From Octopus vulgaris (taxonomy: Eukaryota), in NCBI GenBank assembly GCA_951406725.2, contig OX597842.1, positions 19,902,001-19,966,000 on the forward strand: a stretch of 64,000 nucleotides of DNA. Reading direction: 5' to 3'. Of the stretch, positions 12,549-45,397 are shown one piece after another. Within the stretch, counting starts at the first letter, position 1, and the number at the start of each line of letters is the position of its first letter. A program made the position numbers and the translations under genes. The notes under the pieces are model-generated. The model saw only the letters and a list, made by a program, of their open reading frames with translations. It had not been told where the DNA came from and ran no database searches.

Positions 12549-12700
12549 TATATATATATATAATTGCAAACATATAAGGCATGGCCATGATAGGACATCC
12601 GACTCACTAGAAAGAGCAGTTAAACTCCAAACCACTAATAGTTGTAATTCTGAAATGGAAAGAGAGATAAAAGGGTAAACGTTTTGGCGATCTTTCGTCT

Positions 12701-13140
12701 CTAGTAGACATTTCCGTCGATTTCCGTAAAAAATTTTTTTTTTTTTACATATGGGCTTGCGGGAACTTTTGAAGTAATGAGAGCGAAAGAGACTAAGAGA
12801 AAGCGATTGTATGACGAGGGAAGTTCTTTTGAAGTTACCGTGCATGACAAGCATTGATGTACATGTGTGTGTGTGTTTGATGGGTGGGTGGGAGACAGAC
12901 AGTATGTTGTGTAAGTGAAGTGCTTCTGTTAGCGTGTGCGAAGAGACAGAGAGAGTAATGTGTGAAAGAGAGATAACTGAATTTTTTTACTCGGTGGTAT
13001 GTGTATATGTATGTATGCATGTATGTGTGTGTATGTATCTATGTATGTGTGTGTGTATGTATATTACTTCAAAAGTTCCCGCAAGCCCATATGTAAAAAA
13101 AAAGAAGTTTTTTACGGAAATCGACGGAAAGGTCTACTAG
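12701..13140. mobile_element. MITE with ~78-bp inverted repeats
   Basis: CTAGTAGACATTTCCGTCGATTTCCGTAAAAA...GAACTTTTGAAGTAAT (12701-12778) mirrored at 13063-13140; related end at ~22894. Confidence 0.7.
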
Positions 13141-13276
13141 GCGATCTTACCCAAATCTTTTAAGAGCTTAGGGCCTCGACGGCCCTGCCCAACATTGGAA
13201 TTAAAAAACACTTACCCGAGAACAAGTATTCCAGTAACGACGACGTGGCATCTGCTGTCGAAGACTAAAAAGAGTG

Positions 13277-13492
13277 TGTGGTGTGGTGATGAGGGAGTGT
13301 GACAGAGAGTGAGGGAGCGGAAGTGGGTCTTGCAGGTCTCATGCGCCGGCGGAAGAGACACGACGCCAAGACGACAAGACGCTAGCAAGTTGGCTCAAGG
13401 CGAATCCGGCTTCATCTCTACAGGTAAGACCAAATTACACTTCTAATTCTTTTCCTTGTTCTGTTACGCTCCTTTTCACCACATCTATCACA
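13277..13492 (+). repeat. 5' LTR (216 bp)
   Basis: Starts TGTGGTGTGGTGATGAG, ends CACATCTATCACA; last ~130 bp identical to the 3' LTR. Confidence 0.93.
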
Positions 13493-13504
13493 AGCTATTT
13501 CGGC
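13493..13504 (+). promoter_or_regulatory. Atypical primer-binding site complementary to tRNA-Phe nt 1-12
   Basis: AGCTATTTCGGC directly abuts the LTR; reverse complement GCCGAAATAGCT equals the recalled 5' end of metazoan tRNA-Phe(GAA). Confidence 0.75.
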
Positions 13505-13545
13505 AAAATAATCACTCGGTTTCGTGAAAATAAAAAATAAAAATT

Positions 13546-14301
13546 ATGCAGACTGCTATGATTTCACGCGACCCTATAACACCGTTTTGCGGCGACACCG
13601 ACGTGGTCGCTTGGTTGAGGAGGGTGAAGTTGGTGGCGAAGCTACACGGCATAGCTGACCTGGCTAGTTTTATGCCGTTGTATTTGGATGGCCCGGCGTT
13701 GGCGTTATATCTGGAGATGGAGGAAGCGGACCAACGCAGCGCGGACAAGGTGGAGATCCGACTTATGGAGGCCTTCGCGGAAGGAATGTTCGAAGCGTAC
13801 ACTCGACTGGGTAGGATGAGGTGGACAGGACAGCAGGTGGACGTGTTCGCCGGCGAGCTTAGAAGGTTGGCAAAACTTGCGGGATATGAGGGAGAGTCGC
13901 TAGAACGCACGGTCAGGTTAGCGTTCGTGACCGGCTTTCCCGACATCATGTCGGTCGAGCTACAGAAGCTCCCGAACGTGCGGTCGATGCCGATGGCCGA
14001 GATTATATCGCGGGCACGTGTACTGGTGTCGTGCAGCAGGTCGACGTCGGTAGCAGCGACTGCAACGTCGAAAAGTGGCCCAGCTAGGAGCAACGGAGAG
14101 GGGCTGGGGAAAGAACGTGTGCGGTCGTTTAAGGGACAGTGTTTCCGGTGCCAGGGCCCACACATGGTCCGTGACTGCGCGTCGCCCAAGCCCGAGGTGA
14201 TTTGCTACCGGTGCCGAGAGCCGGGGCATGTGGCCAGCGAGTGTCTGCGGGGAAACGGACCGCGGGAGACTACTGCGCCGGTAGTTGTCCCTTTGGATTA
14301 G
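13546..14301 (+). CDS. gag: Gag with two CCHC zinc knuckles
   Basis: 251-aa open ORF; CFRCQGPHMVRDC and CYRCREPGHVASEC. Confidence 0.92.
   Translation: MQTAMISRDPITPFCGDTDVVAWLRRVKLVAKLHGIADLASFMPLYLDGPALALYLEMEEADQRSADKVEIRLMEAFAEGMFEAYTRLGRMRWTGQQVDVFAGELRRLAKLAGYEGESLERTVRLAFVTGFPDIMSVELQKLPNVRSMPMAEIISRARVLVSCSRSTSVAATATSKSGPARSNGEGLGKERVRSFKGQCFRCQGPHMVRDCASPKPEVICYRCREPGHVASECLRGNGPRETTAPVVVPLD
14250..14291 (+). promoter_or_regulatory. -1 programmed ribosomal frameshift signal (gag to pro-pol)
   Basis: G GGA AAC slippery heptamer in gag phase, 7-nt spacer, hairpin GGGAGACTACTG-CGC-CGGTAGTTGTCCC; the protease ORF is in the -1 frame. Confidence 0.8.
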
Positions 14302-14789
14302 TAGCGGCGCGTTTCTCATCGTTACCTGTGGTCGACATTCTGGTGAAGGGGAAGATGTCGCGAGCCCTGGTGGACACGGGCTGTACGACGACCCTGATGA
14401 CCACAGAAGTGGCAGAGACGTGGAGTGGAGGAAGCAGTGTCAGGGCAGTCGACGGAAGAGAAGTGCACTGCGAAGGGGTTACGGATGCGCAGATCGTGGT
14501 GCAGGGACTGCAGCTGACGTTGCGAGCGATTGTGGTCGGTCACTTGGTGGACGAGATCGACGTGGTGATGGGGATGGATGCGATCACCCGTCTGGGAGGT
14601 GTTACCGTCAACGAGGCTGGCGTAACGTTTGGGCTAGCAGGGAAGCCGTGTAGGGCGACACCACGCACCGACGACGACCGTGAGGAAATGGATGCGGCGC
14701 ACACCATTGAAGACCAGGATTTTCGGGCTGTCTTTGATGGCGAGAGGTGGACAGTGGAGTGGCACTGGAAGGGAGAGCCCCGATGTTAA
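14256..14789 (+). CDS. Retroviral-type aspartic protease region (reached by frameshift)
   Basis: ALVDTGC catalytic motif and VVMGMD motif in ORF 14202-14789. Confidence 0.88.
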   Translation, partial: RTAGDYCAGSCPFGLVAARFSSLPVVDILVKGKMSRALVDTGCTTTLMTTEVAETWSGGSSVRAVDGREVHCEGVTDAQIVVQGLQLTLRAIVVGHLVDEIDVVMGMDAITRLGGVTVNEAGVTFGLAGKPCRATPRTDDDREEMDAAHTIEDQDFRAVFDGERWTVEWHWKGEPRC

Positions 14790-17161
14790 AGAACAAAGTG
14801 GGCTGCTATCAGCATACTCTAAAAGGAGATGCCAGAAGTGAGTTCGAGGGGGAGGTGGAGCGGTGGATTAAGGAGGGCATACTGATCCCCTGGGAAAAAG
14901 AAGAGAGCGGAGTCCTGCCACTGATGGCGGTGATACAGCCCACAAAGCGTAAGGTCAGGCCAGTGCTCGACTTCCGAGAGCTGAATGACCACGTGTCGTG
15001 TCATACAGGCGGCGAGGCCACGGATGTCTGCGGAGACACCTTGCGAGAGTGGAGGCAGACGGCGGGGGCCTCCACGATTGTCGATTTGAAGTCGGCATAC
15101 CTTCAGGTTCATGTGGCTGAGAAACTATGGAGGTACCAGCTCGTCAGGTATAGGGGCCGGACGTACTGTCTGACCAGGTTGGGATTCGGGCTGAATTCAG
15201 ATCCGAAGATTATGGCAACAATTCTCAAGGCCGTCCTGGGGAAGGTGGACAGAGTAAAAAGGGCCACCAATTCATACATCGACGACATTCTGGTGGATGA
15301 AACCGTGATACCAGCAACGGAGGTCATAGGCCACCTGAAGAGTTTTGGACTGATCGCCAAGCCGCCAGAGGCTATGGAGGGAGGTGCTGCACTGGGCCTC
15401 AAGCTATGGAGAGACAAAGCCGGCGCCTTGGTGTTCCGGCGAGGGAATGAGATCCCTGAACTGGGCGCCAGCATGAGTAGACGGGAGCTGTTCTCTGTGT
15501 GTGGGAAGCTGGTGGGACACTACCCGATTGCAGGCTGGCTCCGGACAGCATGCAGCTTCATCAAGAGACGAGCCGAAGGAGTGAAGTGGAATGACAAAGT
15601 GGGGGAGAGGACGATCGACATGATGCAGGAAGTCCTGGTCAGAGTAAGAGCAGAGGACCCGGTGAGGGGCAGCTGGTACGTTCCCAAATCAAAGAGCGGG
15701 ATCGTATGGTGTGACGCCAGTAGCATCGCAATAGGGATTGTCTTGGAAGTGGGAGGTGTCACGGTGGAAGATGCAGCCTGGCTCAGGAAGATGGATGACT
15801 GCAGTCACATCAACGTGGCGGAGTTGGAAGCCGTGCTGAAGGGGGTGAACCTAGCCTTGAAGTGGGGGTTGCACACCATAGAAATCAGGACTGATTCAGC
15901 CACTGTACTTGGTTGGGCGATGGCAGTCATCACCGATGAGCGGAGGGTGCGGACCAAAGGGGCTGCAGAGATGCTGGTAAAGCGTCGATTGGGGATACTG
16001 CGTGAACTGACCACTGAGTTCAATCTGAAGCTGAGCGTGATCTTTGTGCCTTCCGAGAAGAACAGGGCAGACGTCCTGACCAGGGTTAAGCGAGCCTGGT
16101 TGCAAGTGCCAGAGGACGCGAAGCAGGATCTAGCTGCAGTATGCCGTCTGAGCGACTCGGAGTTACGGAGACTACACACCATGCATCACATGGGTGTGGA
16201 CAGGACGTTGTTCCTGGCCAGAAAAGTCGACTCCGACGTAACAAGACAGAGCGTGCGGAGAGTGGTTAGCAGTTGCGACAGGTGCCAGTCCATCGACCCT
16301 GCTCCGGTCATGCATGAAGCGGGAAGTATTCCAGTGGACCAGGAATGGAGACGACTGGCGGTGGACATAACACACTACCGGCAGGGGACATACCTCTCAA
16401 TGGTTGACTGCGGACCGGGGCGGTTCGCCATATGGAGGGAGATGAGGTCAGGAACCGCAGAAGAAATTGCGAAAGTGCTGAACGAGATATTCCTGGAACG
16501 AGGCCCCGTGGATGAACTGCTTCTGGACAACGGCACTGCATTTCGCTCGGAGGCGCTGAGAGAAATGCTTGATGAGTGGAAGGTCAACCGCTTCTTCAGG
16601 GCGGCATACCGGCCAAGTGGAAACGGGGTGGTGGAAAGGCATCATCGTACCATCAAGGCCATGGCTGAGAGGGGTCACATTTCACCAGTCGAGGCCGTGT
16701 TTTGGTACAACATGTCGCCCAGATCAGGACACGCCGAGGAGTCGGTGCCACACAGGGCAATATTCAGGTACGAGTGGAGACATCCGTGTACTACATCAAT
16801 GCGACCCGGGGCAGAGGAAGAGCACGCCTTCGTGCAGGTCGGGGAGGAAGTCTGGGTGAAACCCCCGAACGCACGGTGTACATCGCAATGGGGAAAGGGG
16901 ACAATAACCTCCGTAAATTCAAAGAACAACATCTCGGTAGATGGTATGCCACGCCACGTTTTGGACATACGGAGGATTGTCCATGCCCCGGAGGATGGGA
17001 CAAGCAACAGTGGGCAAGACGATAACAACAGACAGGATGACGAGGTCGGCAGCAACACGCCAGAAACAAGTCCTAGGGTCGCACTGCGACTACAGAGGGA
17101 GCGGCACCCTCCTCCCTGGTTGGCTGACTACGAAACCAGTTTCAGGTGCGGGAGCGAGTGA
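14780..17161 (+). CDS. pol: Pol: reverse transcriptase, RNase H, integrase
   Basis: RPVLDFRELN, VDLKSAYLQ, LGFGLN, YIDDI; WCDAS/AELEA/TDS/NRAD; H..HMG..CDRC, LDNGTAF, NGVVERHHRTIK; out of frame with the protease by 1 nt at ~14778-14781. Confidence 0.93.
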   Translation, partial: PMLKNKVGCYQHTLKGDARSEFEGEVERWIKEGILIPWEKEESGVLPLMAVIQPTKRKVRPVLDFRELNDHVSCHTGGEATDVCGDTLREWRQTAGASTIVDLKSAYLQVHVAEKLWRYQLVRYRGRTYCLTRLGFGLNSDPKIMATILKAVLGKVDRVKRATNSYIDDILVDETVIPATEVIGHLKSFGLIAKPPEAMEGGAALGLKLWRDKAGALVFRRGNEIPELGASMSRRELFSVCGKLVGHYPIAGWLRTACSFIKRRAEGVKWNDKVGERTIDMMQEVLVRVRAEDPVRGSWYVPKSKSGIVWCDASSIAIGIVLEVGGVTVEDAAWLRKMDDCSHINVAELEAVLKGVNLALKWGLHTIEIRTDSATVLGWAMAVITDERRVRTKGAAEMLVKRRLGILRELTTEFNLKLSVIFVPSEKNRADVLTRVKRAWLQVPEDAKQDLAAVCRLSDSELRRLHTMHHMGVDRTLFLARKVDSDVTRQSVRRVVSSCDRCQSIDPAPVMHEAGSIPVDQEWRRLAVDITHYRQGTYLSMVDCGPGRFAIWREMRSGTAEEIAKVLNEIFLERGPVDELLLDNGTAFRSEALREMLDEWKVNRFFRAAYRPSGNGVVERHHRTIKAMAERGHISPVEAVFWYNMSPRSGHAEESVPHRAIFRYEWRHPCTTSMRPGAEEEHAFVQVGEEVWVKPPNARCTSQWGKGTITSVNSKNNISVDGMPRHVLDIRRIVHAPEDGTSNSGQDDNNRQDDEVGSNTPETSPRVALRLQRERHPPPWLADYETSFRCGSE

Positions 17162-17197
17162 GGAAGCCGGTTCAGTGATCTATAGATCATGGGGGCG

Positions 17198-17458
17198 TGT
17201 GGTGTGGTGATGAGGGAGGGAGCGGAAGTGGGTCTTGCAGGTCTCGCAGGGTGCATGCGCCGGCGGAAGCGGAAGTCAGCGACAGAACGCACGTGCGGCA
17301 TCGACGAGGGCAGTCAGACTCGAGAACGACGCCAAGACGACAAGACGCTAGCAAGTTGGCTCAAGGCGAATCCGGCTTCATCTCTACAGGTAAGACCAAA
17401 TTACACTTCTAATTCTTTTCCTTGTTCTGTTACGCTCCTTTTCACCACATCTATCACA
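17198..17458 (+). repeat. 3' LTR (261 bp)
   Basis: Same termini as the 5' LTR; longer 5' (U3-like) part. Confidence 0.93.
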
Positions 17459-18003
17459 GAGTGCAAAGTTCTCCACCAATAGAATTAACCACTGCAGCTT
17501 CGACAGTCGGGATGTGTGGGCGAGAGGGTACTATGTTCAAAAATAAACATCATTTGGTCTATTACCGTCTCAATTGATTCTCGTATACATACGTATTATA
17601 CATACGGACCCAAACAAGCCTATATATATATACAGAGGTGGGCAGAGTTAATCTAAAAGTTAACTTCGTTAATTCTTTGGAAAATCAACGGAAGTTACCG
17701 TTAAGGTTTATTGAACAAGAGGCATACCTACAGTTTAATACCCCACCGACTTTGTTGCCTCAAAACTTCCAAGAAGTTCATACCTTTTAACGAAACTTTC
17801 ACCAAAGGCGCATGAGTGGCTGTGTGGTAAGTAGCTTGCTTACCAATCACATGGTTCCGGGTTCATTCCCACTGCTTGACACATTGGGCAAGTGTCTTCC
17901 ACGGGTCGACCAAAGCATTGTGAGTGGATTTGGTAGATAAAAACAGAACAGGCACACACACACACGAACAAGCACGCACACACTATGGAAATTACACGGA
18001 ATC

Positions 18004-28592: not shown

Positions 28593-29279
28593 CTAATGAA
28601 TGAGTCTGTGAGTGGTCAAGTGATCTATTTCAGAGAATGATTCACCACAGGTGTCACAATGATGTGACTTCACCCCTGAATGAACACCTTTGTGTCTACT
28701 TAAATGTCCCTTTTGAGTGAATGATTTACTGCAGATATCACAGTGGTAAGGTTTCTCACCTGTATGGATAAATCTGTGAGTGGATAAGTCACCACTTTGA
28801 GAGAATGATTTATCACAGATATCACATTGATATGGCTTTTCACCTGTATGAGTACGTTTATGTACAATTACACCACTTTTGTGAGTGAATGATTTACCAC
28901 AGATATCACACTGAAATGGTTTCTCTCCTGTATGGATAACCTTGTGAGCAGCTAAGTTACCATCTCGAGAGAATGATTTACCACAGATATCACACTGAAA
29001 TGGTTTCTCTCCTGTATGAATACGTTTATGTACAGTTACAGCACTTCTTCGAGCAAATGTTTTACTGCAGATATCACACTGATATGGTTTCTCCCCTGTG
29101 TGAGTAAGTCTGTGTGTATCCAAGTTAAATTTCATGGAGAATGATTTACCACAGATATCACAGTGATATGGTTTCTCTCCTGTATGAGTAAGTTTGTGAG
29201 TAGCTATGTAACTCTTTAGAGAGAATGATTTACCACAGATATCACAGTCGTATACAGATTTTCCTCTTTCTTTTGGCAT
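28593..29279 (-). CDS. C2H2 zinc-finger protein, 8 fingers (228 aa)
   Basis: MPKERGKSVYD then 8 CxxC...HxxxH units with TGEKPY linkers; candidate splice acceptor TTTCAG at 29697-29692. Confidence 0.9.
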   Translation of the reverse strand: MPKERGKSVYDCDICGKSFSLKSYIATHKLTHTGEKPYHCDICGKSFSMKFNLDTHRLTHTGEKPYQCDICSKTFARRSAVTVHKRIHTGEKPFQCDICGKSFSRDGNLAAHKVIHTGEKPFQCDICGKSFTHKSGVIVHKRTHTGEKPYQCDICDKSFSQSGDLSTHRFIHTGEKPYHCDICSKSFTQKGHLSRHKGVHSGVKSHHCDTCGESFSEIDHLTTHRLIH

Positions 29280-31354
29280 CTCTGCAGCTAAAACTAACAA
29301 AACTCCAAGATTCTCACACAATTCCTCTTTCTGTAATTTTTTTCTTCAACAAAATGGTCTGGAAATTTCATTTCTTCTTGTTTCTATATTTTATTCCTAA
29401 CAAATGTTACAACTGCCATATTTTTATCAAATATAAGCTTTGCTGATATCTTAAGATGTTGCAAATGTCTTTGTAAATTTATCCAAGTTTATTCAGAATC
29501 CAAATTTAGGTTTTACCCATTTCAGAGTGAATCCAAGAAATTTCACCAATAATGTCACTCAGAAGAAATATTTTACTGAAATTCACAGTTAATTTACATA
29601 AACAGGGTTCTTATATCCAGTTCTGTGTAACATCGTCTTCAAAATATGATAAATATTGATGACGCTTCTGCAGTAAATTTCCTCTGATATTCTGAAATAA
29701 GAGAGAAACAACAGTTTAACACAGAGTGTAGCTTTGGTTATGACAAAGGCTTGGTGTTCATTTATATACGACATTTACTGCTACAATGATAAATCTCATT
29801 TAAGAAACAGATTGGGTTTATTTACATTTCTGAAGAGAAAAAGGGATCTTTTCGGTTTGACCGGCAGTTTTTTCTAGTGGTGTCATATGAAATTGTCACC
29901 CATAATTATGACCCTAGTATCAATCTATTGCATTTCAATCTGTTTTAGGGTTAGGAGTGGGGGGAAGGGTAATTTTCTTTTTTTTTCCACAAATGTAAAT
30001 AAACCCAATCTATTTCTTAAACGAGGGACATATTCATACTGCCTTTAGGCAGTACAAAAACAACAAAAAAGTGGAAGGTGCAGTTATGACAAAAGAAAAG
30101 CAGGACAAAAACGATGCATGCAAATGGGTTGGCTGGAGGTAAATCTAGATGGAAAAGCATGATAAATTTATGAGAACCCGCTGGGACATTAATATATATA
30201 TAATTATAATAAAGGGTTATTTGCAACAAGTTGCTTAAACCACATACCGAAAATATTAGAAATAGCAGCCAAATAGGCTACTATTACTATTACTACAAAA
30301 ATAAGTCTCCACAAACAACAGTATTTGCAACCCAAACAACAGTATTTGCAACCCGTATATGGTAAAAGGAATGAAGACAACGAAATCACACAGTCTACTT
30401 TATATATATATATATACACATGAGCAAAATACCCCTCCTCCCGGCCGTCCAATGGAATGTGCTGAGTTGTCAAACATTTAAACCAAATTTTCTCAAGATA
30501 ACTTGTCCGACCGCTCCATAGGCCTCCCCTTTGAGAAACACTGATTTAACCTAAATTAGGGACACCAGCAAAAGAAGAAATAAAGATAGACTTTTTTTCT
30601 ATTCCAAAGAAAAACGATTTTATTCACAAAAATATGCAACCGAAGAGTTTAAAGTACCAGTAATTATAAGGCTGTTGACTGGGAGAACACAAACATGGTT
30701 TAAACAGTAAGCTTGGCAGGAAAGAAACGTGCCTTTAAGCAGGACAAAAACAACAAAAAATGGAAGGTGCAGTTATGTACAGGTTGACGGAAGAAAACCA
30801 GGACAAAAACGGCTTTATTGATCGCATTCTCACCTGGAATATATTATTGTAATTTTTTCTCACCTGGAAACGATTTTTGTAATTTTTTCAAAGACTAATA
30901 CACGCCCTGATACAGTCGGTATCTACAAATCAAATTTAAGTGCAATCGGATGGAGGATGCCTGAAATCCAAGAAGACACACAGACAGAACGGATTTTATA
31001 TAAGAGATTATGAAAAACAGCTTTTATTAAAAATATCAGAATGGTAGATATTGATGAGTATAAATAAAAAATATAGTGTTTTGTTATAACATGCTGTTAT
31101 ATCTCCTTTATCAGCTGGATATATTTATTGTTATATAAGATATTCCTTTCAACAAATGACTTTTGATATTGATACAGTCACTCTTCTCTATGATGAGAAA
31201 TATATCTGTAGTTAATTGTCTTTTTTCAGAGAAGGATATACCACAGAATCAGTTAGATGGTTTCTCTTCTATATCAATGTGTGTCTGTGTTTATCTAAGA
31301 GATTTATTTGAGAGAACCATTCACCACAGATATCACAATGACATGGTTTCTCTC

Positions 31355-33157
31355 CTAATGAATGAGTCTGTGAGTGGTCCAGTGATCTATTTCAGAGAAT
31401 GATTCACCACAGATATCACAGTGATAAGGCTTTTCACCTGTATGAGTAGGTTTGTGATTAGTTAATTTAGCTTTTACAGAGAATGATTCACCACAGGTGT
31501 CACAATGATGTGATTTCATTCCTGAATGAACACCTTTGTGTCTACTTAAATGTCCCTTTTGAATGAATGATTTACTGCAGATATCACAGTGATATGGCTT
31601 TTCACCTGTATGAGTACGTTTGTGATTAGTTAATTTAGCTTTTACAGAGAATGATTCACCACAGGTGTCACAATGATGTGATTTCATTCCTGAATGAACA
31701 CCTTTGTGTCTACTTAAATGTCCCTTTTGAATGAATGATTTACTGCAGATATCACAGTGATATGGCTTTTCACCTGTATGAGTACGTTTGTGATTAGTTA
31801 ATTTAGCTTTTACAGAGAATGATTCACCACAGGTGTCACAATGATGTGACTTCACCCCTGAATGAATACCTTTGTGTCTACTTAATTGTCCCTTTTGAAT
31901 GAATGATTTACTGCAGATATCACAGTGATATGGTTTCTCACCTGTATGAGTACGTTTGTGTTTAGTTAAGACAACCTTTAGAGTGAATGATTTCCCACAG
32001 ATATCACAGTGGTAAGGTTTCTCACCTGTATGGATAAACCTGTGAGTGGATAAGTCACCACTTTGAGAGAATGATTTATCACAGATATCACATTGATATG
32101 GTTTCTCACCTGTATGAGTACGTTTGTGTACAGTTACAGCACTTCTGTGAGTGAATGATTTACCACAGATATCACAGGAATATGGCTTTTCTCCTGTATG
32201 AGTAAATTTGTGAGTAGCTAAGTCACTATTTCGAGAGAAGGATTTACCACAGATATCACACTGGTAAGGTTTCTCCCCTGTATGAGTAAGTCTGTGCTTA
32301 CTTAAATTACATTGCAAGGAGAATGATTTACCACAGATATCACACTGATGGGGTTTCTCGCCAGTGTGAGTATGTTTGTGTTTAGCTAAGTCACCATTTC
32401 GAGAGAATGATTTACCACAGATATCACACTGGTAAGGTTTGTCGCCTGTATGAGTAAGTTTGTGCGTAACTAAGTAACCGCATCGAGAGAATGATTTACT
32501 ACAGATATCACAGTGATATGGTTTTTCTCCTGTATGAATACGTTTATGTATAGTTACAGTACTTCTTTGAGTGAATGATTTACCACAGATATCACACTGA
32601 TAAGGTTTCTCCCCTGTATGAATAACTTTGTGTGTCACTAAGTTAACTCTCACAGAGAATGATTTACCACAGATATCACACTGATAAGGTTTCTCACCTG
32701 TATGAATAAGTTTGTGTGTAGTTAAGTTACCTTTCAAAGAAAATAATTTACCACAGATATCACACTGATAAGGTTTCTTGCCTGTATGAGTATGTCTGTG
32801 TTTAGCTAAGGCACCATTTCGAGAGAATGATTTACCGCAGATATCACACTGATATGGTTTCTCCCCAGTGTGAGTAAGTTTGTGTGTATCCAAGTTAAAT
32901 TTCATGGAGAATGATTTACCACAGATATCACAGTGATATGGTTTCTCTCCTGTATGAATACGTCTGTGACATGTTAAACCACTACAATTAGAAAATGATT
33001 TACCACAAATATCACAATGATATGGTTTATCGCCTGTATGAATACGTTTATGTACAGTTACAGCACTTCTTCGAGCGAATGATTTATCACAAATATCACA
33101 CTGATAAGGTTTCTCACCTGTATGAGTAAGTTTGTGTTTAGCTAAGTTAACTCTCAT
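31355..33157 (-). CDS. C2H2 zinc-finger ORF, 21 intact fingers (600 aa)
   Basis: 21 x 28-aa units; paralog of 28593-29279 with matching UTRs; open only from an internal Met. Confidence 0.8.
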
Positions 33158-33634
33158 GGAGAATGATTTACCACAGATATCACAATGATATGGTTTCTCT
33201 CCTGTGTGAGTAAGTGTCTAGTCAAAAGACCACTTTGAGAGAATGATTTACCACAGATATCACACTGATATGGTTTCTCACCTGTATGAATATGTTTATG
33301 TACAGTTACAGCACTTCTGCGAATTAATGATTTACTGCAGATATCACAATGATATGGTTTCTCTCGTGTATGAGTAAGTTTGTGTTTAGTTATGTGACAG
33401 TTTTGAGAGAATGATTTACCACAGATATCATACTGATATAGTTTTTGCTCTGTGTGAATATTTCTGTTAATAGTTAGATTAAGTTTATTTTTAATATGAT
33501 TTACCACAGATATCACAATGATGTGGCTTCTCTCCTGTATGAGTAAATTTGTGAGTAGCTAAGTTAACTTTCACAGAGAATGATTTACCACAGATATCAC
33601 AGTCATATACAGATTTTCCTCTTTCTTTTGGCAT
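33154..33634 (-). pseudogene. Disrupted 5' part of the long zinc-finger gene
   Basis: Same MPKERGKSVYD start, stop at 33491 in finger 2, further frameshift near 33205-33215. Confidence 0.8.
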
Positions 33635-42591: not shown

Positions 42592-43358
42592 CGTTTGCCA
42601 GCGTCGTGTGGCACGTAAAAAGCACCCACTACACTCATGGAGTGGTTGGCGTTAGGAAGGGCATCCAGCCATAGAAACAGTGCCAAATCAGACTGGGCCT
42701 GGTGCAGCCTTCTGGCTTCCCAGACCCCAGTTGCACCATCCAACCCATGCTAGCATGGAAAGCGGACGCTAAATGATGATGATGATGATGATGATATATA
42801 TATATATATATATATATGTAATAAATGTATATCTGAACCACACTGTTCCAACATGGCCTGGCAGAGGTGTTCAGGTTTTTTACTTTTACCCAGGAGCAGA
42901 TAGGTCAATTACATCAGACACCATTGTTCAATTAGTAATTATTTCATTGATCCCCGAAAGATGGAAGGCAAAGTCGACCTTGGCAGGATATGAACCCAGA
43001 ATGTAAAGACAGATGAAATTCTGATATTTGATGAGATATCCGACCTCGGCGAATTTCTTAAGATCCCCCCCACCCTCCACACAAATGCACGCAAACACAT
43101 ATTTTCTACATTGTGGTTTTGAGACTTTTTTAATACTGATTAGAGATCAATAACTGTTTTATGTTGTCGAGTAAATCAGAATTTGTTGTCTGAAGACATA
43201 GAAATAAAATCGAACAAAATATTCAGCAAAAACAAAATCCTGGTGTCTGAAATCGAATGAGATATTTCTGTTTCTGAAAGTGAAAGTAATTCAGACAATA
43301 ACTCAGTGACAAAGAAAACGAACTTGTATCTGACTGTAACAAATGTTTGAATACTGTT

Positions 43359-45397
43359 TAGGAGCGGCTGTGTGGTAAGTAGCTTGTTTACCAAACACAT
43401 GGTTCCAGGTTCAGTCCCACTGCATGGCACCTTGGGCAAGTGTCTTATACTATAGCCTCGGGCCAACCAAAGCCTTGTGAGTGGATTTGGTAGACGGAAA
43501 CTGAAAGAAGCCCATCGTATGTATATATATATATATAGGTGTAGGAGCGGCTGTGTGGTAAGTAGCTTGGTTACCAACCACATGGTTCCGGGTTCAGTCC
43601 CACTGCGTGGCACCTTGGACAAATATCTTCTACTATAGCCTCGGGCCGACCAAATCCTTGTGAGTGGATTTGGTAGACGGAAACTGAAAGAAGCCCATCG
43701 TATGTATATATATATATAGGTGTAGGAGCGGCTGTGTGGTAAGTAGCTTGGTTACCAACCACATGGTTCCGGGTTCAGTCCCACTGCATGGCACCTTGGG
43801 CAAGTGTCTTCTACTATAGCCTCGGGACGACCAAAGCCTTGTGAGTTGATTTGGTAGACGGAAACTGAAAGAAGCCCATCGTATGTATATATATATATAG
43901 GTGTAGGAGCGGCTGTGTGGTAAGTAGCTTGGTTACCAACCACATGGTTCCGGGTTCAGTCCCACTGCATGGCACCTTGGGCAAGTGTCTTCTACTATAG
44001 CCTCGGGACGACCAAAGCCTTGTGAGTGGATTTGGTAGACGGAAACTGAAAGAAGCCCATCGTATGTATATATATATATAGGTGTAGGAGCGGCTGTGTG
44101 GTAAGTAGCTTGGTTACCAACCACATGGTTCCGGGTTCAGTCCCACTGCATGGCACCTTGGGCAAGTGTCTTCTACTATAGCCTCGGGACGACCAAAGCC
44201 TTGTGAGTGGATTTGGTAGACGGAAACTGAAAGAAGCCCATCGTATGTATATATATATATATAGGTGTTGGAGCGGCTGTGTGGTAAGTAGCTTGTTTAC
44301 CAACCACATGGTTCCGGGTTCAGTCCCACTGCATGGCACCTTGGGCAAGTGTCTTCTAGTATAGCCTCGGGACGACCAAAGCCTTGTGAGTGGATTTGGT
44401 AGACGGAAACTGAAAGAAGCCCATCATATGTATATATATATATAGGTGTAGGAGCGGCTGTGTGGTAAGTAGCTTGGTTACCAACCACATGGTTCCGGGT
44501 TCAGTCCCACTGCGTGGCACCTTGGGCAAGTGTCTTCTGCTATAGCCTCGGGACGACCAAAGCCTTGTGAGTGGATTTGGTAGACGGAAACTGAAAGAAG
44601 CCCATCGTATGTATATATATATATATATAGGTGTAGGAGCGGCTGTGTGGTAAGTAGCTTGTTTACCAACCACATGGTTCCGGGTTCAGTCCCACTGCAT
44701 GGCACCTTGGGCAAGTGTCTTCTAGTATAGCCTCGGGACGACCAAAGCCTTGTGAGTGGATTTGGTAGACGGAAACTGAAAGAAGCCCATCGTATGTATA
44801 TATATATATATATAGGTGTAGGAGTGGCTGTGTGGTAAGTAGCTTGGTTACCAACCACATGGTTCCGGGTTCAGTCCCACTGCATGGCTCCTTGGGCAAG
44901 TGTCTTCTACTATAGCCTCGGGACGACCAAAGCCTTGTGAGTGGATTTGGTAGACGGAAACTGAAAGAAGCCCATCGTATGTATATATATATATATAGGT
45001 GTAGGAGAGGCTGTGTGGTAAGTAGCTTGGTTACCAACCACATGGTTCCGGGTTCAGTCCCACTGCATGGCACCTTGGGCAAGTGTCTTATACTATAGCC
45101 TCGGGACGACCAAAGCCTTGTGTGTGCATTTGGTAGACGGAAACTGAAAGAAGCCTGTTGTATATATGTATATATATATATATGTATGTGTGTGTTTGTG
45201 TTTATCCCCCTAGCATTGCTTGACAACCGATGCTGGTGTGTTTATGTCCCCGTGACTTAGCGGTTCGGTAAAAGAGACCGATAGAATAAGTACTGGGCTT
45301 ACAAAGAATAAGTCCCAGGGTCGAGTTGCTCGATTAAAGGCAGTGCTCCAGCATGGCCGCAGTCAAATGACTGAAACAAGTAAAAAGAGAAAAGAGA
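43359..45397 (+). repeat. Tandem array of ten ~181-185 bp SINE 5' halves ending in one complete family A SINE
   Basis: Unit starts near 43361, 43544, 43725, 43906, 44087, 44270, 44451, 44636, 44821, 45004, separated by (TA)n. Confidence 0.92.

Follow-up and report, generated by a model that had tools for sequence, protein, structure and literature searches.

How does an LTR retrotransposon start its minus strand when the sequence beside its 5' LTR is complementary to the first nucleotides of a tRNA rather than to its 3' CCA end? An element in the 64-kb stretch of Octopus vulgaris DNA analysed here (the window) raises this question. An initial annotation, made from the letters of the window, had proposed that a 5' fragment of tRNA-Phe primes its minus-strand synthesis.

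The element and its match to host tRNA-Phe

The element is an LTR retrotransposon of 4,182 bp (~4.2 kb) at window positions 13277-17458 with TG..CA ends and a 5-bp target duplication, and it carries the general attributes of its class (direct LTRs, target duplication, gag, RT, RNase H, DDE integrase and polypurine tract). Its features are as follows:

13272..13276, + strand: left target-site duplication GAGTG (5 bp), identical to the 5 bases after the 3' LTR
13277..13492, + strand: 5' LTR, 216 bp, TG..CA, ending ...ATCACA, from comparison with the 3' LTR
13425..13430, + strand: splice-donor-like GTAAGA within the 5' LTR; probable RNA contigs stop at 13424
13493..13504, + strand: predicted primer-binding site, exact complement of tRNA-Phe(GAA) nt 1-12
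13534..14301, + strand: reading frame of gag, with the first ATG at 13549 and one or more zinc knuckles at the end (zf-CCHC, E 1.2e-6)
14175..14789, + strand: aspartic protease frame (Pfam gag-asp_proteas)
14250..14256, + strand: slippery heptamer GGGAAAC where gag and protease overlap, a predicted site of -1 frameshifting
14738..17161, + strand: RT - DUF7047 - RNase H - integrase (HHCC, DDE) frame (Pfam; predicted structure)
17189..17197, + strand: polypurine tract, a G run plus 2 bases, then the 3' LTR
17198..17458, + strand: 3' LTR, 261 bp, ending at the same CA as the 5' LTR
17459..17463, + strand: right target-site duplication GAGTG, directly after the 3' LTR

All 200 aligned bases of the two LTRs are identical and indels are their only differences, so the element is young. 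Because both LTRs stop at the same CA and the target duplication comes directly after the 3' one, the 5' LTR boundary is exact, and the annotated placement of the 12-mer stands: AGCTATTTCGGC at 13493-13504 adjoins the CA of the 5' LTR with no spacer and no TGG. It occurs once in the whole window.

The protease frame is -1 relative to gag, and the GGGAAAC heptamer in their overlap is followed by a predicted hairpin of -29.3 kcal/mol (window 14250-14330). Of 71 loci, 62 have a slippery heptamer, mostly GGGAAAC, at the corresponding position (a count without a shuffled control), and we predict that heptamer and hairpin form the -1 frameshift signal of the lineage; in some homologues (rows of 1,150-1,240 aa) gag and pol are fused in a single frame. 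The window copy has a pol broken by a frameshift between protease and RT, many sister copies have open frames of 988-995 codons, and the catalytic residues of the pol enzymes, RNase H included, are kept in 64-65 of 65 homologues. A G run like that of the window polypurine tract is present in 25 of the relatives listed, and the spacer between the G run and TG is 2 bases and variable.

The initial annotation had given a 12/12 match to tRNA-Phe nt 1-12, and the host genes agree with it: a 15-nt pattern for the start of host tRNA-Phe(GAA) has 94 genome matches versus 0 for its reversed control, and for each of the 20 loci fetched ARAGORN identified the matching gene as tRNA-Phe(gaa). The difference at nt 1-12 of host tRNA-Phe that the annotation had named as fatal to its reading is thus absent. 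Pairing between the site and tRNA-Phe is perfect over nt 1-12 and ends at nt 13, and AGCTATTTCGGC is the longest complement to tRNA-Phe anywhere in the element. The only other complement of at least 8 nt is an 8-mer in gag (14210-14217) facing nt 68-75, and no complement of the 3' end of this tRNA was found near the LTR. By simple arithmetic, the chance that a uniform 12-mer matches one of ~60 tRNA 5' ends is ~4e-6. A further point of the annotation, the identity of TTTCGGCA with the acceptor 3' strand of the tRNA itself, is correct but uninformative, since 7 of its 8 bases follow from acceptor-stem pairing; the eighth (A), directly after the site, is not conserved, with no more than 16 of 33 relatives and 18 of 30 own-genome loci having it.

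Several other features were noted. About 45 units with a 200-bp period, each with a tRNA-Phe start, form a tandem array at G000:C18:30147732-30157146. To the left of the element, an inverted pair of ~75 bases (window 12660-12790 and 13070-13150) surrounds a microsatellite-rich core and looks like a small DNA-transposon derivative. Elsewhere the window holds C2H2 zinc-finger arrays on the - strand (28593-29345, 8 fingers; 31355-33217, 22 fingers) and a tandem array of ~10 units of 181-185 bp of a tRNA-like SINE (43354-45206), which is also dispersed in the window.

Conservation of the site and its changes among tRNAs

Sister copies with a normal TGG site were the second observation that the annotation had named against itself. 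The exact site is present in 29 of 30 fetched sister loci and the remaining one differs by C>T; since the sister loci share it, the window copy has not lost a normal site. Genome-wide, the 15-mer made of ACA plus the site has 279 matches versus 3 for the reversed control, and downstream of it gag or protease was found in 26 of the 30 loci fetched and pol in one more. The site was also surveyed in 20 own-genome regions fetched around RT hits of 69-98% identity: 13 have it intact or with the final C>T, three carry 1-2 substitutions (L057, L058, L060), one (L068) has a deletion that leaves half of it, three are without a 5' end, and none of the 20 has a TGG site. It is kept in families of 69-79% pol identity despite a different LTR and leader, and it adjoins the LTR-end CA in every copy with both LTR ends comparable (13 own-genome loci and L088). 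Control copies from the same genome behaved differently: 18 of 18 conventional gypsy copies (PF17917) with LTR pairs, which represent about five families and are therefore not independent, have TGG 0-3 bases from the LTR, so normal sites are easy to see by the same method. Both of the two BEL controls were fragments without an LTR pair. Three internally deleted copies (L243, L257, L258; G000) keep the site with a second LTR or LTR end nearby, in L243 a 3' LTR 330 bases after the site, and are possible non-autonomous derivatives.

Distant relatives were found with a query alignment of the window pol and 64 homologues, which yielded 76 metagenome loci and 2 genome-bin loci; a metagenome scan with the single window protein returned no relative, and none was found in viral contigs. 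The site could be assessed in the 36 of 78 loci that have at least 1,150 bases upstream of RT, whose pol identity is 37-59%. A strict pattern (YA, then N-GCTA-NNNN-GGC), composed like our other search patterns after the data had been inspected, is present in 28 of these 36 relatives versus 5 of 296 same-size control windows inside pol, so that the conservation in related elements on which the annotation had staked its reading extends to distant ones. Among the eight that miss the pattern, six fit with deviations, in the LTR end only (L107) or at the far end of the site facing tRNA nt 1-3 (L114, L119, L137, L144, L148), and two are without the region: L129 begins only past the site and L109 lacks an upstream gag. 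Pieces of the lineage also lie on short contigs in two bacterial genome bins (L147, L148), which is probably contamination.

In a comparison of 33 relatives, the bases opposite tRNA nt 8-12 never change (33/33) and those opposite nt 1-3 are retained in 29-32; there is free variation opposite nt 5-6, and past nt 1 nothing is conserved. The 5' ends of tRNAs combine a constant U8-A9-G10-C11-U12 with a variable acceptor stem. As judged from sequence, the conservation profile of the site is the pattern of tRNA 5' ends.

The annotation had also suggested looking for covariation of the site with the tRNA, and among the relatives the site does switch between tRNAs. Seven environmental loci match the tRNA-Phe of the window genome 12/12, whereas the site of L118 is a 12/12 complement of nt 1-12 of tRNA-Lys(CTT) and that of L128 a 12/12 complement of nt 1-12 of an intron-bearing tRNA-Met(CAT), matches of one locus each for which the tRNAs of the window genome serve as stand-ins for those of the hosts. 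The tRNA-Met(CAT) start is present in 44 of 45 pattern matches, and 9 of 12 loci are called Met when ARAGORN allows introns; the multicopy host tRNA-Met(CAT) genes (L379-L390, G000) have introns of ~21-22 bases and variable sequence. Phe, Lys and Met pairings all end at nt 12, in one register. In L128 the base beside the LTR changes from A to C where tRNA nt 12 changes from U to G, and this compensating change indicates that the register is fixed and argues against the AG as a mere integrase or splice signal. In the own genome the Lys-type site has 0 matches versus 2 for its control. Host tRNA-Lys(TTT) genes (L152, L157, L160 and others, G000) begin GCCCGCATAGCT, so that the Lys-like site found in L096 and L121 (complement of GCCCGGATAGCT) would pair imperfectly in this host. 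The commonest other variants are complements of GCCGCGATAGCT (8 loci, L139 among them) and of GCCGTGATAGCT (7 loci). Scans of viral contigs showed three of the variant 12-mers to be genuine starts of tRNAs (mostly Thr, one Phe), in tRNAs of phage or bacterial type that are uninformative on eukaryotic hosts. The variants are dispersed across the RT tree, and even close relatives may carry different ones (L088 versus L092; L135 versus L139), which would fit replacement of the site by copying of a new host's primer.

These observations bear on the possibility that the motif is not a primer site at all, having arisen by chance or serving as an integrase or translation signal, as a splice acceptor or as the remnant of a damaged normal site. 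The splice-acceptor version is suggested by the pyrimidine-rich LTR end followed by AG and by an upstream donor-like site that is used in probable RNA contigs: AG/GTAAG lies at 13424/13425 and 17389/17390, in both LTRs, with 50-70 bases between it and the LTR end. Contigs of runs X1, X3 and X4, whose status as RNA is a guess, leave the element after 13424 into the same foreign sequence, which is absent from the window, and are likely to represent an LTR-driven transcript spliced into a host exon. The donor-like motif is kept across most own-genome families; in distant relatives it is found within 150 bases in 8 of 28, at no fixed distance, and is not conserved. No joint from the LTR donor to the AG of the site was found in the probable RNA contigs of 8 runs, and contigs cross the site unspliced. 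The excess of genome matches over the control, the exact pairing with three tRNAs and the loss of the AG in L128 speak against any non-primer role, and the TGG of all 18 gypsy controls against a damaged site. We regard these explanations as largely refuted and, taken together, as hardly credible.

Predicted priming from tRNA nucleotides 1-12

The comparative evidence supports the reading of the initial annotation that a 5' tRNA fragment primes the minus strand, with both the primer and the cutting enzyme being what we infer from sequence. Priming from tRNA nt 1-12 is very likely. We also think it probable, with rather less assurance, that the 12-base site is a primer-binding site and that nt 1-12 of the tRNA are cut off, most plausibly by the RNase H of the element, to prime reverse transcription. 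In the particle, Gag with its zinc knuckles would bring about pairing between the site and tRNA nt 1-12, with both the acceptor stem and the D stem being opened; cleavage where the 12-bp RNA duplex ends would leave a 3' OH on nt 12, as in Tf1; RT would extend from nt 12 straight into the terminal CA of the LTR; and plus-strand synthesis would copy the primer to its natural 5' end. Under this proposal, such copying would account for the abrupt end of conservation at tRNA base 1 and would allow the site to follow the tRNA of a new host. As RT needs a paired 3' OH at the LTR end and the LTR end faces nt 12, nt 13-76 would have to be removed. The predicted duplex of site and tRNA has an energy of -18.7 kcal/mol versus ~-14.7 for the two tRNA stems opened, a small margin computed for unmodified RNA with tertiary structure ignored.

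The template itself does not appear to supply the primer. Self-priming was rejected as a candidate, there being no complement of the site of 6 or more bases in either window LTR and, in the flanks of 33 relatives (several with part of the LTR only), complements of at most 7 bases.

A tRNA might instead be bound by its 5' end and left uncut, for packaging, dimerisation or RT loading, with priming by its freed 3' CCA, a protein or another RNA. Binding of nt 1-12 would free the acceptor 3' strand, and the gag 8-mer at 14210-14217 is complementary to nt 68-75. Yet synthesis must start at the LTR end, which faces nt 12 on the far side from the CCA; the 8-mer is 700 bases off and would not yield the observed LTR boundary; and no TGG site lies beside the LTR. 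Nor were complements of the site found that exceed 7 bases in the flanks of 33 relatives or 5 bases in 8 own loci. We judge an uncut tRNA to be very improbable.

Where exactly the primer ends is a separate matter. The polypurine tract has a 2-base spacer and the primer site has none, so the true primer end could be 2 bases away. The 12-base pairing might then include one or two bases that are not primed from, the primer ending at nt 10 or 11 and the first 1-2 bases being an overhang trimmed by integrase as in retroviruses, and the variable 2-base spacer between the G run and TG does suggest integrase 3' processing. A mere overhang would be expected to vary freely, however, whereas the two bases are an invariant AG in 33 of 33 relatives, and the AG becomes CG exactly where tRNA nt 12 changes (L128). 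This shorter primer is improbable, and nt 12 remains the preferred primer end.

The most serious question concerns the enzyme that cuts. The same 12-base primer could be made by a host nuclease, through capture of ready-made 5' tRNA fragments or through cutting of the annealed tRNA, and all comparative evidence on the site fits this equally well. Host enzymes may take part in the cutting of copia-type half-tRNAs. Such half-tRNA primers are cut in the anticodon stem (PMC6317226, in the portion available). A fixed cut after nt 12 in three tRNAs and many hosts would be explained more simply by an element enzyme that measures from the duplex edge. Common 5' tRNA fragments are longer, at about 14-30 nt, which also counts against a host nuclease, and we consider its involvement unlikely though deserving of attention. 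The one pointer to RNase H rather than a host nuclease is the analogy with Tf1, whose RNase H cuts its own RNA between bases 11 and 12 according to the available parts of PMC7175516 and PMC4600332; in our estimate, the element RNase H would be about two to three times as probable a cutter as a host enzyme.

Lineage, relation to known priming systems and meaning

Homologue searches returned 787 and 544 hits among ~8,000 candidates each. The named homologues listed belong to Argonauta, Aplysia, Oratosquilla, Petrolisthes, Macrosteles and Hydra and carry no annotation beyond 'uncharacterised' or 'hypothetical', and the nearest among the matches listed is from Argonauta. For the DUF7047-RNase H part there are 255 clusters (50% identity) with E up to 1e-30 and 975 with E up to 1e-10. 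In a quick RT tree of 76 rows, 71 lineage rows stand ~10 changes per site apart from 5 own-genome gypsy rows, these being 5 of 8 intended gypsy RTs and the sole outgroup, with no named references.

The pol order PR-RT-RH-IN is that of Ty3/gypsy (Metaviridae), and gag preceding it, TG..CA ends, a 5-bp duplication and a predicted -1 frameshift are likewise shared. Unlike Ty3/gypsy, the element has an RT far from the host gypsy RTs, lacks PF17917/PF17919 and carries DUF7047. The gypsy-type RNase H profiles PF17917/PF17919 had no hit in the window protein nor in the 120 + 120 homologue rows listed, and the window RNase H matches RVT_3/RNase_H profiles. A predicted structure (pLDDT 80.8) has retroviral and caulimoviral RTs as its best matches, at only 10-19% identity, and the best solved-structure hits by sequence are retroviral integrases. 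The predicted RNase H fold comes directly after the RT region and is followed by integrase (secondary structure only).

Other divergent groups were compared. Troyka and Kuafuorterviruses are likewise a deeply divergent animal LTR lineage long filed under gypsy, but in the available text of PMC12440569 and PMC11673190 they have CG..CG ends, a 3-bp duplication and IADD/VADD/LADD, versus TG..CA, 5 bp and YIDD here. The main texts of both papers, as far as available, contain no treatment of primer sites, and no close relative of the window element is among the passages of the Kuafuortervirus supplement (PMC11673190) that were available. Odin/lokiretroviruses have a dual RNase H (PMC9040795, in the part available) and were rejected because the predicted structure shows one RNase H fold, at ~residues 300-435. 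DIRS elements have a tyrosine recombinase, whereas the window element has a DDE integrase with rve and Integrase_H2C2 hits, and were rejected as well. By the features tested, the lineage is not Troyka/Kuafu, Odin or DIRS.

Known LTR elements use three types of primer, namely a whole tRNA, a half tRNA cut in the anticodon stem, or a self-primer (PMC6317226, available portion), and their sites match tRNA 3' ends or anticodon loops, the truncated type occurring in Copia only (PMC10886601, available portion). Canonical priming from the tRNA 3' end, in retroviruses and most Ty3/gypsy, BEL and copia elements, shares with the window element the position of the site after the 5' LTR. Sites of 8-18 bases and switching of tRNA identity between lineages are described for it in the accessible part of PMC13524379; switching occurs here too. 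The canonical site has TGG and pairs with the 3' CCA end, whereas here the opposite tRNA end is matched, TGG is absent and a cut is needed. Half-tRNA priming (copia, Ty5, Osser, Bryco, Bianca, fungal Copia/Helenus) has in common with our proposal a tRNA primer truncated at its 3' side. Its cut and pairing lie in the anticodon stem/loop and it is reported from Ty1/copia only, going by the parts of PMC6317226 and PMC10886601 available, whereas here the pairing involves nt 1-12 and the predicted cut is in the D-stem; Ty1/copia elements also place IN before RT, in contrast to the gypsy-like domain order seen here. The closest parallel in geometry is Tf1/sushi (S. pombe Tf1, Tf2 and Tj1; Tcn1 and TAR lineages), with a pairing of 11-12 bases at a 5'-terminal RNA end beside the LTR and a cut at the duplex edge (PMC7175516, PMC4600332, in the portions available). 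There the primer comes from the element's own RNA, whereas here we predict a primer supplied in trans by a host tRNA, the LTRs having no complement of the site, and the proteins of Tf1/sushi are unrelated to those of the window element beyond fold level.

We found no description of a primer from tRNA 5' nt 1-12 in the literature judged by title and start of abstract, outside Repbase and subscription journals. No such primer appears in the available portions of PMC6317226, PMC10886601, PMC13524379, PMC7472051, PMC3587641, PMC12859917, PMC4600332 and PMC3601003, and those of PMC9040795 and PMC7947760 contain no text on primers. The site is real, lineage-wide and apparently undescribed, and it would constitute a variant of cut-tRNA priming whose geometry mirrors Tf1 self-priming. 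A broader interpretation, which we offer tentatively and at somewhat less than even confidence, is that an unnamed, widespread and deeply divergent DUF7047 lineage, spread through molluscs, crustaceans, insects and cnidarians as well as many unidentified eukaryotes, employs its own RNase H to release the first 12 bases of a host tRNA as a primer, which would make it a fourth mode of LTR priming and a superfamily of its own.

If true, this would be a trans-acting counterpart of Tf1 self-priming and a bridge between self-priming and tRNA priming. Pipelines that seek tRNA 3' ends only, such as the method in the available text of PMC13524379, would score the lineage as having no primer site. Hairpin priming has been proposed to have come first (PMC3601003, portion available); cutting by the element RNase H would link self-priming to tRNA priming, bear on how tRNA priming arose and amount to a programmable, 12-base RNA-guided cleavage of tRNA. 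A further prediction of the proposal is that competition with elements of this lineage, or their silencing, would come from 5' tRNA fragments and not from 3' ones.
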